Shown here: in pieces, positions 2,076 through 47,416 of the stretch
Layout of the letters: every line of letters starts with the position of its first letter
Position numbering within the stretch: position 1 is the stretch's first letter
Source: a bacterium
GTDB taxonomy: Bacteria > Patescibacteriota > Minisyncoccia > Phycocordibacterales > UBA5272
DNA: 56,805 bases
Direction of reading: 5' to 3'
NCBI GenBank assembly: GCA_043751115.1
Contig: JAYVAE010000040.1
Coordinates: 1-56,805 of the forward strand
The notes under the pieces: generated by a model
Told to the model about the DNA's origin: nothing
What the model saw: only the letters and a program-made list of their open reading frames with translations
The model's database searches: none
Translations under genes and position numbers: made by a program

Positions 2076-2500
2076 AAAAAATAATTTTTACTCTTCTTTT
2101 TTCTCTTCTTGCTTCTGGTCTCATCTCGAGCACCATGCTTTCCGCCTCTGCTTCGACATCTACATCTACTAGCATTAGCCAAGAAAGTTATGTCGATTGT
2201 ATACGCTTTGCAAGCAAGGAGTATGAAGGCAAGGAGTCTACGCTCCTTAATACTCACCGCATCACCATAAAATCATTAGAGCTTGAAAGAAGTGAGCAAA
2301 TAAAATCTCATTTTACATTTTTTGCACTCCGTGCAAGTATCACCAAGATACAAACCATTAGAAATTACTACAGATCAAAAATAGACGTAGCTGACGAGAA
2401 TCTCAAAAATAATCTACTTGATATTAAAAGTGATTACGAGGTAAGGATAGAACTTTGCCAAAACAAGAAGAAAGAAATGGGGGACGCGCACTCTCTATAA
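2072..2500 (+). CDS. Hypothetical small secreted protein
   Basis: ATGA start/stop overlap with pgk. The N-terminus MKKIIFTLLFSLLASGLISS looks like a signal peptide. No recognisable family. Confidence 0.6.
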   Translation: MKKIIFTLLFSLLASGLISSTMLSASASTSTSTSISQESYVDCIRFASKEYEGKESTLLNTHRITIKSLELERSEQIKSHFTFFALRASITKIQTIRNYYRSKIDVADENLKNNLLDIKSDYEVRIELCQNKKKEMGDAHSL

Positions 2501-3259
2501 CTTAAGAGTAAGGGACACGGGGCAATGGTCACTGCCATAAACATCGTCGTGTATAAAGGCTGACGTAATATTTTTTGAAAAATTCTTTGATGTATAAAAA
2601 TAGTCGATCCTCCATCCCACATTTTTTTCTCTACTTCTTGTTTTCATATCCCACCAGGTGTACTGAACTTTATCTCCATTCACAAAGCGATAGGTATCAA
2701 TAAAATTTTCGGTAAAGTTCTTGAGCCTATCTCTTTCTGGCTTCGTGCAGCCAAGTTTATTTTTATTTTCTTTAGGGCGAGCAAGATCAATGTCTTCGTT
2801 GGTTGCATTGATATCTCCGGTAAAAATGACAGGCTTCTTTTTTTCTAACTTCTTTGCAAGCGCGAGGAAGTGATCATAATAGTCGAGTTTATAGAGGTAA
2901 TGCTCGTCACTTTTACCACCATTTGGAAAATAGCAATTGATAAAATAAAATTTTTCAAATTCTAAAACAAGCGTTCGGCCTTCTTCATCGTAAAAGTCCT
3001 TCTTATCAAGTGTTGCGTGAAGGAGAGTAAAGGGGAGTTTGGTATATACCGCAACTCCAGAATATCCTTTTCTATTCCTGGCGCTTTCAAAAATGCTTGT
3101 ATAGCCGTAATAGGCAAGCTCCTCTTTTGTAAGCTGAGAGATTTCGCATTTTGTTTCTTGAAGGGCGATGATATCAGCCTCCATCTCGAATACCTGCTTT
3201 ATAGTATCTTTTCTAAAACCAGCCCTAATGCCGTTCACATTCCAAGAAATAAGTTTCAT
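2495..3259 (-). CDS. xth: Exodeoxyribonuclease III (AP endonuclease)
   Basis: Starts MKLISWNVNGIR, with QETK and SDHCPV motifs typical of ExoIII. The extra 46 N-terminal codons in the ORF track (to 3397) run across a terminator hairpin and are rejected. A TATACT box lies 6 nt upstream of the ATG at 3259. Confidence 0.9.
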   Translation of the reverse strand: MKLISWNVNGIRAGFRKDTIKQVFEMEADIIALQETKCEISQLTKEELAYYGYTSIFESARNRKGYSGVAVYTKLPFTLLHATLDKKDFYDEEGRTLVLEFEKFYFINCYFPNGGKSDEHYLYKLDYYDHFLALAKKLEKKKPVIFTGDINATNEDIDLARPKENKNKLGCTKPERDRLKNFTENFIDTYRFVNGDKVQYTWWDMKTRSREKNVGWRIDYFYTSKNFSKNITSAFIHDDVYGSDHCPVSLTLKL

Positions 3260-3284
3260 TGAAGTAGTATAGCAAATAAGAAAA

Positions 3285-3302
3285 GGCACGCCGTAGCGCG
3301 CC
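3285..3302 (-). terminator. Intrinsic terminator (7-bp GC stem, UACG loop, U-tract on minus strand)
   Basis: The minus strand reads GGCGCGC-UACG-GCGUGCC followed by UUUUCUUAUUU. It closes the GC-elevated block downstream of hfq, just before the xth promoter. Confidence 0.6.
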
Positions 3303-3833
3303 CCTTTTTCACCATCATCACTTGCCCTTGGGGAGGACGAGCAAAGACGATGAGGTATTGCTGTGGGCCTTCCACCCACTTTCCTTTCCGAAACCATGGC
3401 TTCTGCTATGTTTTTTCTCCTTTGAACATCAGTAGCACTACATCGTCTTCTTAATAGTCAACTTCGGCCACTTTGCCCATACCCTTGTATCCGAGGAGAA
3501 TCTCTCCTGGGAAAAGACCCCCATGATCCGATGCTTGTATTTTTCCTCGATTCCGTAGCCCTCTTCTGCTGCTCGTCACAGCAACGAAAAGGTCAAAGCC
3601 TCTGAAATGCTTTGACTTCGGACTTGGCTGGAATTGCTTTGGTGCTGGAATGTTTAGCGGTACATCGATTGCGCTTTGGGCAGCTCAGTCACGTTTTTGA
3701 TGTTCGATGGCTTCTTCACCGCTATCGACATGGCACATTATTTGGGTGTCAAGTGACATAATTTGGGTGGTCTTACCTGATATGTCATCTTCCAAATCCA
3801 AAAATAAAGCACTTGGGGATACATTCCGGTTAC

Positions 3834-4070
3834 TCAGGGGACCTCATCTACTTGGAATTTCACTGCACGGCTCGGCAAGACAGTGGAAATGGCGTGCTTG
3901 TAGACCATCTGGGGGATGTTGTTGTGCGCGAGTATCAGTACGTACTGGTCGAACGACTCGATGTACCCTTGGAGCTTGATGCCGTTCACGAGGTATATCG
4001 ACACCAGCACATGCTCCTTGCAGAGCAGTTTCAGGAACGGGTCCTGGAGGAGGGCAGATTTGTTGCTCAT
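3834..4070 (-). CDS. hfq: RNA chaperone Hfq
   Basis: [41 protein letters not shown]...[11 protein letters not shown] carries Sm1 and the Sm2 YKHAIST motif. The start at the ATG at 4070 is preceded by AAGGAG. The coding region is GC-rich (31/60 on line 3961-4020). Confidence 0.92.
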
Positions 4071-4158
4071 GGATGTTCTCCTTGGTTGAGCGTAAGTTAA
4101 AATTGGTGACATTTTGCTGTGACAATCACAAGAACTTATAAAGAACAGCTTCCCCTTG

Positions 4159-4187
4159 ACACTATATTATTTTATATGTGTTGTCAA
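4159..4187 (-). promoter_or_regulatory. Sigma70-type promoter for hfq (TTGACA-N17-TAGTGT)
   Basis: The minus strand has TTGACA (4187-4182), a 17-nt spacer and TAGTGT (4164-4159). It is followed by a leader of roughly 85 nt containing the TGTGATTGTCACA hairpin and an AAGGAG Shine-Dalgarno sequence. Confidence 0.55.
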
Positions 4188-4295
4188 TGATTTTTCTTAT
4201 TGTAAACCAATATGCGTGCATGATTAACGTTGCGTACTTGATTTTATTTCGTCTTTTCACGACACCTCAACTTTCTTCCTCCTTCCCAAAATTCA

Positions 4296-5282
4296 TTACG
4301 AGTTCGGGCGACCATCCGTCCTAGAGTCTGCAGAGCCTGCGGACGGTTTAGCCCTCTTCCCATGAAACTTTTCATACTGGTCGCGGAGGAATTTGTTGGT
4401 GACATTGGTGTAAATTTGCGTGGTAGCAATGGACGCATGTCCGAGCATCATTTGCACCGTGCGAAGATCTGCGCCGTTATAGAGAAGGTCTGTTGCAAAG
4501 GAATGCCTAAGCACATGCGGAGTGCATTTCTTCGCAATACCAGCTCGCTCAGCGTACTTATTAAGTGTCCTTTCCACACTACGCGGTGTGAGCCTGATAG
4601 ACTCTTCTTTTTTCATGCGTGATAATGCGCGAGGGGAGTGATCGACAAACATCGCTTCGTCGATATCAGTACGCTCTTTCACATAGTTCTTTACCGCATC
4701 TTTCGCATTTTCAGAAATAAAAACAACACGCACTTTACCACCCTTGCCGCGTACTGATATTTCACCAGAAGAAAAGTCAGTATCTCGATCGAGCGAGCAA
4801 AGCTCAGAGACTCGAAGACCTGTAGCAAAAAGCATTTCAAGGAGAGCTCTATCGCGAAGACCAGGAAGGGTTGACGTGTCTGTTGCTTCAAAGAGATTAT
4901 TGAGCTCCTTCTCTGAAATAAGATCGAGCTCGCGCCCTCCTGTCTTTGCAAGCTCTATACGCTCAGGGTCATAACTTTGCACACCCTCTCTTCGCATATA
5001 TTTTAAAAAGGCACGCAGTGCGATGAGATGATAATTCTGAGTACTTTTGCTCAGTGTTTCTACCACCTGCCCCTTTTTTTCTTTTCTGGCAGAGAGACGG
5101 TTCAGGTAAATGCGATAGCTACGAAGCTTTTGCTCAGATAAATCTTTCGGATGCTCAACTTTGACAAAATCTAAAAAGCGAGTGAGATAATGATTGTAAT
5201 TTCTCACCGTAAGGGAGGACCTTCCTTTTTCTATTTCTATATACTGGAGAAAATCATCTTTAAGCTGTGAGAGAGAGTGCAT
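4296..5282 (-). CDS. Tyrosine site-specific recombinase, XerC/XerD family
   Basis: C-terminal catalytic region HVLRHSFATDLLYNGADLRTVQMMLGHASIATTQIYT, with an N-terminal SAM-like core-binding domain. The last ~20 codons (GKRAKPSAGSADSRTDGRPNS) are encoded by GC-rich sequence. Confidence 0.88.
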   Translation of the reverse strand: MHSLSQLKDDFLQYIEIEKGRSSLTVRNYNHYLTRFLDFVKVEHPKDLSEQKLRSYRIYLNRLSARKEKKGQVVETLSKSTQNYHLIALRAFLKYMRREGVQSYDPERIELAKTGGRELDLISEKELNNLFEATDTSTLPGLRDRALLEMLFATGLRVSELCSLDRDTDFSSGEISVRGKGGKVRVVFISENAKDAVKNYVKERTDIDEAMFVDHSPRALSRMKKEESIRLTPRSVERTLNKYAERAGIAKKCTPHVLRHSFATDLLYNGADLRTVQMMLGHASIATTQIYTNVTNKFLRDQYEKFHGKRAKPSAGSADSRTDGRPNS

Positions 5283-5320
5283 ACATTAGAGTATAACGTA
5301 TTGTCGTACAATAAAAACAA

Positions 5321-5345
5321 CCCCTGGCGCTGCGAGGCGCCGGGG
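5321..5345 (-). terminator. Intrinsic terminator on minus strand
   Basis: The minus strand reads CCCCGGCGC-CUCGCA-GCGCCAGGGG (9 bp with one bulged A) followed by UUGUUUUUAUUG. No U-tract follows on the plus strand. Confidence 0.65.
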
Positions 5346-5570
5346 AAGGATAAAGGATGAGGGAGTTTGTCAATCCGAGTACTTGCGTTCTACGCCCTTC
5401 AGCGCCTTTCATAGACAAGAACCACAAATAGTGTCCAAGTGTTAGGCTCCAGCTGGTGAACATAGACGAGATTCTTGCGAGGTTGAACGCTCCTGAAAGA
5501 TAAGGACGCATTTCTAAGACAAGAATGGATGATTTGCCCTACTAAAAGAACTGCGGACTTGCACGACTTT
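5346..5570 (-). ncRNA. Candidate small structured RNA, class unknown
   Basis: About 225 nt upstream of the minus-strand terminator at 5321-5345. GC is elevated relative to the flanks. The only ORF here (5260..5511, 83 aa) has an implausible composition. No match to tmRNA, RNase P or SRP signature motifs that I can recall. Confidence 0.3.
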
Positions 5571-5667
5571 TATTTTTGTATTCTCTGTTTCAGTTTACTG
5601 CTTGCAACTCTCTTGAACCCTTCTTATTATTTTCCCTACAGACTCACTTTCTTGTATACTAATTCCT

Positions 5668-6303
5668 ATGATTATCGGCGTTGATGAAGTGGGGAGGGGT
5701 CCAGGGGCGGGACCAATAGTTTTCTGCGCTTTCGCACTCCTTGATCAAAAAAATGATGAAAAGCTAAGAGCAGAAATACTAAAACATTTCCCCAAAGGAA
5801 AGCTACGTGATTCTAAAAAACTTTCGGAAAAGAAGAGGGAAGAACTTTCAGAATATTTTCATACTTTAAAAGAGAAAGAACTCGTCACGTGGACTCTCGC
5901 TGAAAGAAGTGCAGAGCAAATAGATAAAATGGGGTTATCTCTTTGTATCAAGGAATGTTTAGAAGAGATTATGCTTTCACTTCATAAACTTCTACTTCAA
6001 AATGAAACCAGTATAAAGCATGAAGATATATATCTTAAGCTAGATGGAGGATTAAAGATGGGTAAAGAGTATATACAAGAAACTATTATAAAAGGGGATG
6101 AAAAGATACTAGAAATAGCCTGCGCGTCTATTATTGCAAAAGTTTTCAGGGATACTTTTATGAAAAGTGAAGCCTTACATTTTCCAGAATATCATTTTGA
6201 AAAAAATAAGGGCTATTTAACGAAAGAGCATATTACTCTGATTAAAAAGTGTGGTGTGACAGAGCTTCACCGTACAAGTTTTCTTAAAAATTTTAAAATT
6301 TAA
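5668..6303 (+). CDS. rnhB: Ribonuclease HII
   Basis: Starts MIIGVDEVGRGPGAGPIV (the DEAGRG motif). A TATACT box at 5655-5660 lies 7 nt upstream of the ATG. Confidence 0.9.
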   Translation: MIIGVDEVGRGPGAGPIVFCAFALLDQKNDEKLRAEILKHFPKGKLRDSKKLSEKKREELSEYFHTLKEKELVTWTLAERSAEQIDKMGLSLCIKECLEEIMLSLHKLLLQNETSIKHEDIYLKLDGGLKMGKEYIQETIIKGDEKILEIACASIIAKVFRDTFMKSEALHFPEYHFEKNKGYLTKEHITLIKKCGVTELHRTSFLKNFKI

Positions 6304-6392
6304 ATTTGCCGGAAAAACTTGGTAACGCTTTTACCCACAAGCATGAAAGGCCACAGCAAGCTGCGGCCTTCAGTGTAACGAATTCCCTTCAC

Positions 6393-7100
6393 TTATGCAT
6401 GGATGTCAGCATACCCACGACGCCTGAGGATTACCAGCGCTACAAGTGCGATTGCCGCGAGCGGCAGGCTTCCCGGGAGGGACACTTGACCTCCACCTCC
6501 TGTTGGCGGATCGCCGTTGTTGCCATGCTCCACGGCACTAATGCCGCCGTGGAGGAAAGAGAACTGTGATGGTGTGCCCAAGATGAGTGTCGAGGTGGTG
6601 ACGGTGTTTGCGAGTGCTCCAACGTCTCGCCCATACAGGCTTCCAACTGTCTCTTCCGTTCCTACCGACCCCAAGTTGATGTTGTTGAACCTAACACTGA
6701 AAAGGTCCATCCCTACCCCCTTTTCGATGCCGAAAACGTCCACGAGGGTTCCATCCGTCGTCGAATACATCCTTGTGCCCACGGTGGTGTACGGCAAGAA
6801 ATCGCCCGTCAGTGAGTCAAAGGCGACTCCTATCGTGGCGGTGCCGGTGGGTATGTCGTATGACGACCGAAACGCAACGTTCTGCGTCACCTCGTTCGGG
6901 GCAAATGTGGCGACCAAACTGTTGCCACTTCCAGGCGATCTGATCACCATACCGCCTTCCGCACTGAGAGTCACCCTCCAGGTTTCGACCATCCCGGAGG
7001 ATGGCATAGCGATGGCGATAGGCTCAGCATGCGCTGACCCCAGTCCTCCCAACCCTAGACACATCGCCAGCCAGACAGCCAGCTTTTTGGAAAAGTTCAT
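6393..7100 (-). CDS. GC-rich secreted protein with PEP-CTERM-like C-terminal sorting signal
   Basis: Signal peptide MNFSKKLAVWLAMCLGLGGLGSAHA. The C-terminus is GGGGQVSLPGSLPLAAIALVALVILRRRG: a short motif, a TM helix and an Arg cluster. 33/60 GC on line 6601-6660, against 18/60 on line 6001-6060 in the neighbouring rnhB. Confidence 0.75.
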   Translation of the reverse strand: MNFSKKLAVWLAMCLGLGGLGSAHAEPIAIAMPSSGMVETWRVTLSAEGGMVIRSPGSGNSLVATFAPNEVTQNVAFRSSYDIPTGTATIGVAFDSLTGDFLPYTTVGTRMYSTTDGTLVDVFGIEKGVGMDLFSVRFNNINLGSVGTEETVGSLYGRDVGALANTVTTSTLILGTPSQFSFLHGGISAVEHGNNGDPPTGGGGQVSLPGSLPLAAIALVALVILRRRGYADIHA

Positions 7101-7155
7101 AGAAAACCTCCAATAATTGTTGTGCCTTCTTGAGACCTCAAGAAGTTCAACATAA

Positions 7156-7184
7156 AATTAACACGAAAAGCCTCTTCTTGCAAG
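7156..7184 (-). promoter_or_regulatory. Promoter for the 6393..7100 gene (TTGCAA-N17-TAATTT)
   Basis: Minus-strand hexamers at 7184-7179 and 7161-7156. The leader contains the hairpin TTCTTGAG-gt-CTCAAGAA and a GGAGG Shine-Dalgarno sequence 6 nt before the ATG. Confidence 0.45.
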
Positions 7185-7347
7185 CCTTAGTTTTCCAACA
7201 CTGAGCAAGAAAGCAACCACTTTCTAACATTTTTTCTATCTTTTTCTTGTAGCACGCTTTGCAGAAGACTTCTCAACACTTGCCTTTTACTAGCTCTTTA
7301 CTTGCATTTTCTAATGAGTTGTGCTATAATAATAGGATATATATTTT

Positions 7348-7614
7348 ATGTTAAGCATCAAGAAAAAAGCAAATGCTATAAAAAGCGTTCAAATACACGA
7401 TACAGACACTGGGTCTCCAGAGGCTCAGGTGGCTGTCCTTTCAAGAAGAATTACTGAGCTCACCGGTCATCTTAAAATTCACAAGAAAGACAATCACTCT
7501 CGCCGTGGCCTCATACAAATGGTTGCAGATAGAAGATCACATCTTAAATATTTAGAAAGAAAAGATTCAAAGAGACACAGCTCTCTTCTCAAGAAACTCG
7601 GGCTTGATAAGTAG
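7348..7614 (+). CDS. rpsO: 30S ribosomal protein S15
   Basis: 88 aa, with HLKIHKKDNHSRRGLIQMVADRRSHLKYL typical of S15. Confidence 0.93.
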   Translation: MLSIKKKANAIKSVQIHDTDTGSPEAQVAVLSRRITELTGHLKIHKKDNHSRRGLIQMVADRRSHLKYLERKDSKRHSSLLKKLGLDK

Positions 7615-7857: not shown

Positions 7858-8538
7858 ATGGCAGTTATTAAACACAGCGACCAACGCGTCGCAATATTTA
7901 TTGATACACAAAACCTTTATCACAGTGCTAAAAATCTTTACAATTCGAAAGTCAATTTTGGAAAAGTTCTTTCCGAAGCACTTGCCGGTAGAAAGCTTAT
8001 ACGAGCTCTCGCTTACGTTATTACTACAGAGGCAGGGGACGAGACTCAGTTCTTCGAAGCTCTCACAAAAATTGGCATTGAAACAAAGACTAAAGACTTA
8101 CAAATCTTTTTTGGTGGTTCAAAAAAAGCTGACTGGGATGTTGGCATGGCGGTTGACGCTATACGTATAGCGCCAAAGGTGGACACCATCATACTTGCAA
8201 CAGGAGATGGCGATTTTGCGCCACTCGTTGTCTTTCTCAAAGAGCATTTCGGAGTACAGGTAGAAGTTATCTCTTTTGGAAGATCGTCATCGAGCAAGCT
8301 AAAAGAAGTCACTGAAGACTTCATCGATATGTGCGACCATCCCGAAGAATTTCTCATTGGACACGGTAGAAGTACTGGAACGAGAAGACCTGCGCATAAT
8401 ACGCAAAGTAAAAAAAGGACGAAATTAAGTAAAGCTGTGACAGAACAAATCGCAGAGAATGCACATGTAGAAAAACATGTAGAAAGAATAGAAAAAAAGA
8501 CTGAAAGTTCGCCACTACTCGGAGAAGACGTTGTTTAA
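7858..8538 (+). CDS. NYN/LabA-like domain protein (predicted RNase fold)
   Basis: VAIFIDTQNLYHSAKN ... ILATGDGDFAPLV pattern of the NYN/DUF88 family, with a basic low-complexity C-terminal tail. Confidence 0.75.
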   Translation: MAVIKHSDQRVAIFIDTQNLYHSAKNLYNSKVNFGKVLSEALAGRKLIRALAYVITTEAGDETQFFEALTKIGIETKTKDLQIFFGGSKKADWDVGMAVDAIRIAPKVDTIILATGDGDFAPLVVFLKEHFGVQVEVISFGRSSSSKLKEVTEDFIDMCDHPEEFLIGHGRSTGTRRPAHNTQSKKRTKLSKAVTEQIAENAHVEKHVERIEKKTESSPLLGEDVV

Positions 8539-47387: not shown

Positions 47388-47416
47388 TTGACATTTTTAA
47401 TGCCATGTCTTAGTGT
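47388..47416 (+). promoter_or_regulatory. Promoter TTGACA-N17-TAGTGT for the 47530 gene
   Basis: Hexamers at 47388-47393 and 47411-47416, with the same -10 hexamer as the hfq promoter. The leader is about 110 nt. Confidence 0.5.

Follow-up and report, generated by a model that had tools for sequence, protein, structure and literature searches.

The hfq locus

The DNA treated here, called the window, is the whole of contig C40 (JAYVAE010000040.1; 56,805 nucleotides) of a Patescibacteria genome of 811 kb (GCA_043751115.1; 66 contigs, 40.2% GC, 93.6% complete), and the element under study is a minus-strand gene, hfq, that encodes the RNA-binding protein Hfq. Labels: G### – genomes (G000 – the window genome); L### – loci or contigs of relatives; GC3 – GC content at third codon positions. 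By the named homologues of its Pgk, the genome belongs to Patescibacteria of Paceibacteria type. On the minus strand a xerC-like recombinase gene is followed by hfq, a 570-bp stretch free of open reading frames (ORFs) and xth. A sequence-only reading of the same DNA had placed hfq between xth and a Xer-type recombinase, and this is where it was found (2495-3262 and 4296-5282, respectively). The features of the locus are as follows.

3834-4070, minus strand: hfq coding sequence, 78 aa; Pfam PF17209, PDB 3sb2, GC3 outlier
4187..4159, minus strand: promoter TTGACA-N17-TAGTGT; exact match
4071..4152, minus strand: hfq 5' leader, ~80 nt; direct reading; homologous to the leaders of L157, L159 and L161
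3307..3833, minus strand: ORF-free stretch 3' of hfq; ~47% GC; no ORF, no similarity to related loci
3281..3306, minus strand: intrinsic terminator; terminator scan; 11-bp stem with 6 GC pairs, T-tract
2495-3262, minus strand: xth, exodeoxyribonuclease III family; Pfam Exo_endo_phos, E 1.7e-28; conserved downstream flank
4296-5282, minus strand: xerC, Xer-type tyrosine recombinase; PF00589 Phage_integrase, E 6e-41; PF02899 SAM-like N-terminal domain, E 1.8e-13

Identification and composition of hfq

The translated gene was matched to Pfam PF17209 over the full profile (positions 1-64 of 64; E 2.8e-26; 91.4 bits, cut-off 27). The best solved structure was the Hfq chain 3sb2_A (Herbaspirillum seropedicae; E 8e-30), and the top 35 PDB matches were all Hfq. 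In the alignment to 3sb2 the Sm2 motif (Y-K-H-A-I) and the uridine pocket of the proximal face are present (Q9, F40, Y43, Y57, K58, H59), the A-R-N residues of the distal face are kept (Y26, I31; E. coli Y25, I30), and the equivalents of E. coli Q8, Y25, I30, F39, F42/Y, Y55, K56 and H57 are all retained; the proximal pocket residues and the Sm2 motif are invariant across the genus alignment. By every sequence criterion but the rim patch, treated below, the window protein is a member of the Hfq family, and the earlier description of an Hfq with intact Sm1 and Sm2 motifs was borne out by the full-length Pfam match and by the RNA-binding residues.

The gene has a GC content of 0.53 and a GC3 of 0.785, the highest among 817 crude ORF-genes (mean GC3 0.368, sd 0.079), and base composition shifts abruptly at hfq. 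The codon and GC3 check thus agreed with the claim that hfq is clearly richer in GC than the backbone; the genome itself, described in the same place as AT-rich, is only moderately so.

Expression signals and downstream stretch

The promoter TTGACA-N17-TAGTGT occurs exactly twice in the window, where chance would give 0.32; the second occurrence lies at 47388-47416 (plus strand), within a GC-rich gene cluster at 46.6-49.3 kb. A promoter class linked to GC-rich genes is suggested. The hfq promoter was not reported by a generic sigma-70 scan, because TAGTGT fits TATAAT at only 3/6 positions. Genome-wide, versions of the promoter with one mismatch often stand before ORFs of 0.48-0.62 GC. The leader of ~80 nt contains a Shine-Dalgarno sequence AAGGAG (4083..4078) located 7 nt 5' of the ATG, so that the promoter, leader and AAGGAG attributed to hfq by the first reading were all recovered.

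Between hfq and xth, 570 bp (3263-3833) are without an ORF; the RNA fold z-score of 3307..3833 is -3.07. The stretch is either a long 3' untranslated region or the remnant of a lost gene. Nothing significant was obtained for 3263-3833 by blastn, tblastx and tblastn against related loci, donor flanks and the downstream ORFs of relatives, and no Rfam match was found at E<=1 in 2400-7400 or at gathering thresholds in the whole window. The strong intrinsic terminator at 3306..3281 probably ends the predicted hfq transcript just ahead of the xth promoter; a TATACT box stands 7 nt 5' of the xth ATG.

In relatives the hfq-xth interval holds unrelated ORFs of 129-150 aa, or uppS. These ORFs are mutually non-homologous, several are GC-rich, and the Pfam search, which covered two of them, returned no family. 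Positions of ORFs of 129-143 aa 3' of hfq: L159, 8390-8821; L163, 4781-5209; L157, 410-799; L166, 7561-7965; L003, 1730-2119.

Origin from Burkholderiales

Hfq is the hub of small RNA (sRNA) regulation in Proteobacteria and is found in roughly half of bacteria (PMC9037510). A sample of 400 further Patescibacteria genomes, from 318 other genera, contained no member of the Pfam Hfq family; in a sample of the order (401 genomes, 223 genera) it was present only in G000, in one congener and in one unrelated genome, the last with a distant Hfq 40% identical to that of the window. A full-text literature search gave no report of Hfq in Patescibacteria or the Candidate Phyla Radiation (CPR). Two adjacent Hfq-like domains were seen in G314 (L022/L023), the sole Hfq-positive genome of another family.

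Among 5.8 billion proteins searched there were matches in the thousands; the best outside the window's own record were 72-78% identical, and the named best matches were of Burkholderiales or Polynucleobacter. As donor set the 80 best-matching loci were taken out of 185,579 species genomes. Of these named matches, 78 carry the label Burkholderiales or that of unresolved beta-/Proteobacteria, the remaining 2 being metagenome-assembled genomes labelled Gammaproteobacteria and Enterobacteriaceae; the genera among the 80 include Pelomonas, Piscinibacter, Rubrivivax, Leptothrix, Variovorax, Massilia and Paraburkholderia. The Hfq cores of several congeners deviate from the Burkholderiales consensus at just 2-6/66 positions. 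The direction of transfer, Burkholderiales to Patescibacteria, was assigned because all Burkholderiales genomes sampled among the matches have Hfq and the recipient phylum is nearly devoid of it. That the gene was acquired, and that its product is of a proteobacterial type atypical for the lineage, had already been proposed; the counts of 0/400 and 78 of the best 80 uphold it.

The window protein shares with Burkholderiales Hfq (e.g., 3sb2) the Sm1/Sm2 core, a length of 78-80 aa with a short C-terminal tail, 72-78% identity and all RNA-binding residues of the proximal and distal faces. It differs in its setting, a Patescibacteria genome of ~0.8 Mb with promoter and leader of recipient type; in the lack of hflX-hflK-hflC 3' of hfq, where the downstream stretch shows no similarity to donor flanks; and in a rim CKEH, not RKEH/RREH, L for P22 and one extra residue in the beta3-beta4 loop.

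The reading that we hold to be probable is that this is a genuine hfq, taken from a Burkholderiales donor by an ancestor within the genus and fixed in the slot between xerC and xth; that it is old and has since been inherited, exchanged and lost; and that it was not delivered by the recombinase.

Continuity of the assembly

An identical Hfq protein is encoded in three assemblies. L169 matches the window over 6237 bp (99.97%, no gaps) and L170 over 800 bp (99.75%); between them, the two run colinear with the window through both junctions. Chimeric assembly is excluded. The composition jump at hfq is what an assembly or binning artefact, i.e., a Burkholderiales hfq fragment mis-joined into a Patescibacteria contig, would give; this explanation retains next to no probability in the face of the two colinear assemblies, of the same arrangement in 18 other genomes of the genus, and of a promoter and leader of genus type, not donor type.

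The xerC-xth slot

The neighbourhoods of xerC from 50 genomes of the genus were compared. All 50 loci have the backbone tpi-pgk-...-xth-(slot)-xerC-rpsO-NYN in common, and xerC is in the same place in 50/50, those without hfq included. Its translation shows the motifs GLRVSEL, HVLRHSFAT, LGHASI and QIYT. The gene is a core gene of the genus, encoding a housekeeping Xer protein and not a cargo integrase; since it occupies this position in every genus genome examined, it is no marker of a mobile element, and the hint at cassette mobility that had been drawn from the recombinase neighbour was not sustained.

The final ~20 codons of xerC (4296-4355) are without counterpart in most congeners, DNA homology ending at ~4347-4363. 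A similar tail (…HGKRAKSSAGPKADNRPNS) is found in L159, the closest other species; being common to the window and L159, it is a subclade trait and not an insertion scar. Repeats around hfq were looked for and none was found; the stretches on either side have no second match in the genome. An integron-like platform or mobile integrase was considered and rejected: xerC is independent of the cargo and co-directional with hfq, and there are no flanking repeats.

The first reading had implied a recent, strain-level hfq cassette delivered by the adjacent tyrosine recombinase, and the extreme GC3 and the adjoining Xer-type recombinase, the last ~20 codons of which lack homology in most congeners, are in keeping with such an event. 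We regard it as very improbable: 18 further species of the genus, and several relatives known from metagenomes, have the same slot, promoter and leader; xerC holds its position in hfq-less genomes; the recombinase tail is shared with L159; and, the window's own record aside, the Hfq protein has no database match above 78% identity, the nearest one itself standing in the genus-type hfq-xth arrangement.

Distribution, descent and loss in the genus

In the genus hfq was found in 19 of 53 species, always between xth and xerC. Nearly all of these loci carry TTGACA-N17-(TG)TAGTGT, then a small hairpin and then a Shine-Dalgarno sequence; the stems of the hairpin vary by species (GGCA/UGCC, GACAG/CUGUC, UGACC/GGUCA and others). 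The leaders of Burkholderiales hfq are unlike those of the genus. From the same slot, promoter and leader it follows that the hfq locus, its expression signals included, is homologous within the genus, and a recent cassette is at odds with this distribution. Synteny and composition shared across the lineage had been named in the sequence-only reading as the sign of vertical inheritance; of these, a shared slot with homologous promoter and leader was found, and within one genus only.

A single clade for all Hfqs of the genus was not rejected by the approximately unbiased (AU) test (p 0.41; an 80-column alignment with little power). Of the hfq carriers, 13/18 fall in one well-supported clade, the G000/G002 clade and G059 standing apart. 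In some hfq-less genomes the gap between xerC and xth is just 33-111 bp. In the metagenomic relative L166 (hfq at 8052-8279) an in-frame stop takes the place of the E19-equivalent codon (…LLRK*HVPV…), the remainder being recognisable; to judge from its reading frame, this hfq looks like a pseudogene in the making.

The xth tree joins G022 (L131:8720-9505) to G000 (SH-aLRT, the Shimodaira-Hasegawa-like approximate likelihood ratio test, 99), whereas the Pgk/Tpi tree puts G022 deep in another clade; because the two trees conflict, the locus is taken to recombine between species of the genus. L166 and the window are 83% identical in xth and 72% identical in Pgk. Hfq of L161 and of L163 is near-canonical, like that of L159; L157 is an unbinned contig with the order hfq-ORF-xth. 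Two further observations concern unusual copies: G067 (L018 1480-1911) encodes a fused two-domain Hfq of 143 aa, and G018 (L004 ~1705-1850) has a partial, GC-rich, canonical second hfq that abuts a scaffold gap, beside an AT-richer full copy.

Several results weigh against the descent proposed above. The free maximum-likelihood (ML) tree scatters the Hfqs of the genus among Comamonadaceae-like and Sphaerotilaceae-like sequences, a pattern that hints at more than one import; polyphyly was set aside as a conclusion, the AU test not rejecting one clade and the alignment having only 80 columns. Whether mapped on the tree of six flanking proteins or on that of Pgk+Tpi, hfq presence takes 7-12 changes, so that a single gain implies many losses. 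L159, the closest other species available (Pgk 86% identical), has a near-canonical Hfq, and the more distant L157 and G002 share the extra loop residue of the window; this pattern does not fit simple vertical descent, and the longer loop in L157, G002 and the window would be either convergent relaxation or allele exchange. Nor would neutral amelioration be expected to leave a GC3 of 0.6-0.8 in place once divergence is saturated. Finally, an sRNA partner for the window Hfq was not found.

GC-richness and the date of transfer

Comparison of the window with L159 puts the proportion of synonymous differences (pS) in xth, xerC, pgk and rnhB at 0.71-0.76, which is saturation; the GC3 of hfq is 0.78 in the window and 0.81 in L159. 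Since GC3 stays at ~0.8 despite a saturated backbone, high GC3 does not date the transfer. Within the genus the lowest GC3 of hfq is 0.38 and the highest 0.81, the background GC being 0.38-0.45, with the subclade G010, G006, G009 and G003 being at 0.38-0.52. Two clocks were tried and rejected: DNA identity to donors, third-position identity being a composition-driven plateau (0.45-0.59 for genus copies vs GC-rich donors, 0.55 among donors), and the rate of synonymous substitution (dS), the backbone being saturated in nearly all pairs.

Low-GC Burkholderiales have hfq of low GC3 (0.30-0.40), and hfq thus has no intrinsic need of GC. In the gene for elongation factor Tu (EF-Tu; G000 contig C48, 277-1473), C is used over T in two-fold NNY codons at 0.73, vs 0.34 genome-wide, a sign of translational selection in a small genome; at most, such selection accounts for part of the hfq bias. 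As the full explanation of GC3 it was rejected, the overall GC3 of EF-Tu being just 0.41 vs 0.78 for hfq.

Recurrent re-import, in which a resident hfq is overwritten time and again, through homology-facilitated recombination or gene conversion, by the hfq of GC-rich Burkholderiales, be they neighbours or hosts, with promoter, leader and flanks remaining native, would explain a gene that is donor-like and a GC3 that is high despite the saturated backbone. Some Hfqs of the genus carry signatures of Comamonadaceae type (RREH, GQIES, STIVPGRAVNF) and others of Sphaerotilaceae type (LLRKEH, GHIES, STVVPGRAVNFH); L159 is near-canonical though it is the closest relative of the window, and the partial second hfq of G018, GC-rich and canonical, lies beside an AT-richer copy. 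We nevertheless judge re-import unlikely. The AU test does not reject the single clade, DNA identity between copies of the genus and the 80 sampled donors never exceeds 89%, and the third-position identity to donors is no higher than the level among GC-rich Burkholderiales. Moreover, the window copy is derived (15/66) and yet has a GC3 of 0.78, i.e., a long-unrefreshed copy has held its composition, and a Cys-rich gene of the same slot, without recognisable Burkholderiales link, is also GC-rich.

The derived window copy and its likely function

The core of the window Hfq is off the donor consensus at 15/66 positions; the 80 Burkholderiales average 3.2, with a maximum of 8. The changes include R17C, P22L, H36Y, R48A and one extra residue in the beta3-beta4 loop; R17C, by which RKEH becomes CKEH, is a single CGC-to-TGC change. 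The basic rim patch (E. coli R16, R17, R19, K47) is missing: the window has C17-K18-E19-H20 and A48, the donors RKEH/RREH and R48. The ratio of nonsynonymous to synonymous rates (dN/dS) vs L159 is ~0.22 for hfq and 0.03-0.06 for xerC and rnhB.

The arginine content of the rim is reported to set the rate of RNA annealing, and the rim patch is a matter of chaperone strength, not of family membership (PMC9037510); rims low in arginine are known from Gram-positive bacteria (B. subtilis RKEN, S. aureus KANQ) and go with weak annealing (PMC9037510). The window Hfq resembles these proteins in that its rim arginine patch is likewise reduced or absent; it differs from them in that the rest of the protein is proteobacterial and not of Firmicutes type, the loss of rim arginine being a single lineage-specific change. 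From its residues, the window Hfq would keep RNA binding with reduced annealing; annealing is probably weak because the rim arginine patch is gone.

The same features admit a harsher reading, i.e., that hfq of the window is a decaying or functionally reduced relic, transcribed with a product that is no annealing chaperone and heading to loss. The 15/66 core differences against the maximum of 8 in Burkholderiales, the arginine-free rim with P22L and the altered loop, the raised dN/dS, the nonsense allele of one relative among frequent losses, and the want of an ORF 3' of hfq where relatives have genes all speak for it. It appears rather improbable to us, given that the frame is intact, promoter and Shine-Dalgarno sequence are perfect, all proximal- and distal-face residues are conserved and the identical protein occurs in three assemblies; a dN/dS of 0.22 still means purifying selection.

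An alternative occupant of the slot

In 7 hfq-less species (G063, G051, G044, G053, G001, G007, G017; e.g., L108:6945-7172) the xerC-xth slot holds a small Cys-rich gene. Its product has 62-72 aa, four invariant Cys and a C-terminal ...C..RCG.PG.GE, and belongs to no Pfam family; the gene is GC-rich and has the same promoter type as hfq. Genome-wide it was found in 7/53 genomes of the genus and never together with hfq (naive P of zero overlap ~0.035, the species being non-independent). Different occupants thus make the xerC-xth slot a variable site between two core genes. It is conceivable, though we would put it forward only tentatively and as doubtful, that the slot is a dedicated high-expression 'guest gene' site, in which alternative small genes, hfq or the Cys-rich one, are swapped between species by recombination, and that genes behind TTGACA-N17-TAGTGT are actively kept GC-rich in an AT-leaning genome, be it by codon/mRNA selection or by conversion, time and again, from the DNA of Burkholderiales hosts.

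Other features of the window

An ORF at 6393-7100 (minus strand; 235 aa, GC 0.57, GC3 0.64) lies between rnhB and rpsO; it has a signal-like N-terminal segment and a hydrophobic C-terminal tail ending in RRRG, and L159 has an ORF 35% identical to it at the same position. The Pfam search gave no family for ORF 6393-7100 or ORF 2072-2500. Bases 1-99 of the window are identical to the contig ends C3 (1-99) and C38 (2791-2888) of the same assembly; this is a repeat located where contigs break or else an overlap in the assembly graph.

Interpretation

According to the preferred reading, an ancestor within the genus would have acquired hfq from a Burkholderiales donor, and the gene would have become fixed between two core genes, xerC and xth, in a variable slot where a strong, genus-typical promoter (TTGACA-N17-TAGTGT) is predicted to drive it behind a leader with a 5' hairpin and a Shine-Dalgarno sequence. 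It would then have passed down vertically, with recombination of the locus moving it among congeners, and have been lost on many occasions. The product is expected to be an Sm-fold hexamer with U-rich RNA on its proximal face and A-rich RNA on its distal face, acting as an RNA-binding or stabilising factor with probably weak annealing. The GC-rich codon usage would be kept up by some process and would not be the leftover of a recent transfer.

The protein is a known family, Hfq, in an unexpected lineage. New beyond the sequence-only reading are the persistent GC-richness, the conserved promoter and leader and the alternative Cys-rich occupant of the slot; calls of a 'recent island' from composition are unsafe in these genomes. 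Should the 'guest gene' site be real, hfq would mark a long-standing association of ultra-small bacteria with Burkholderiales, as well as an RNA-chaperone layer brought into a minimal genome from outside. If the preferred reading is true, many species of a genus whose genomes measure ~0.7-0.9 Mb have retained a Burkholderiales Hfq behind a promoter that is strong and conserved; Burkholderiales would be a plausible long-term partner or DNA source, and regulation based on an RNA chaperone would be directly testable in a minimal, probably host-dependent cell.

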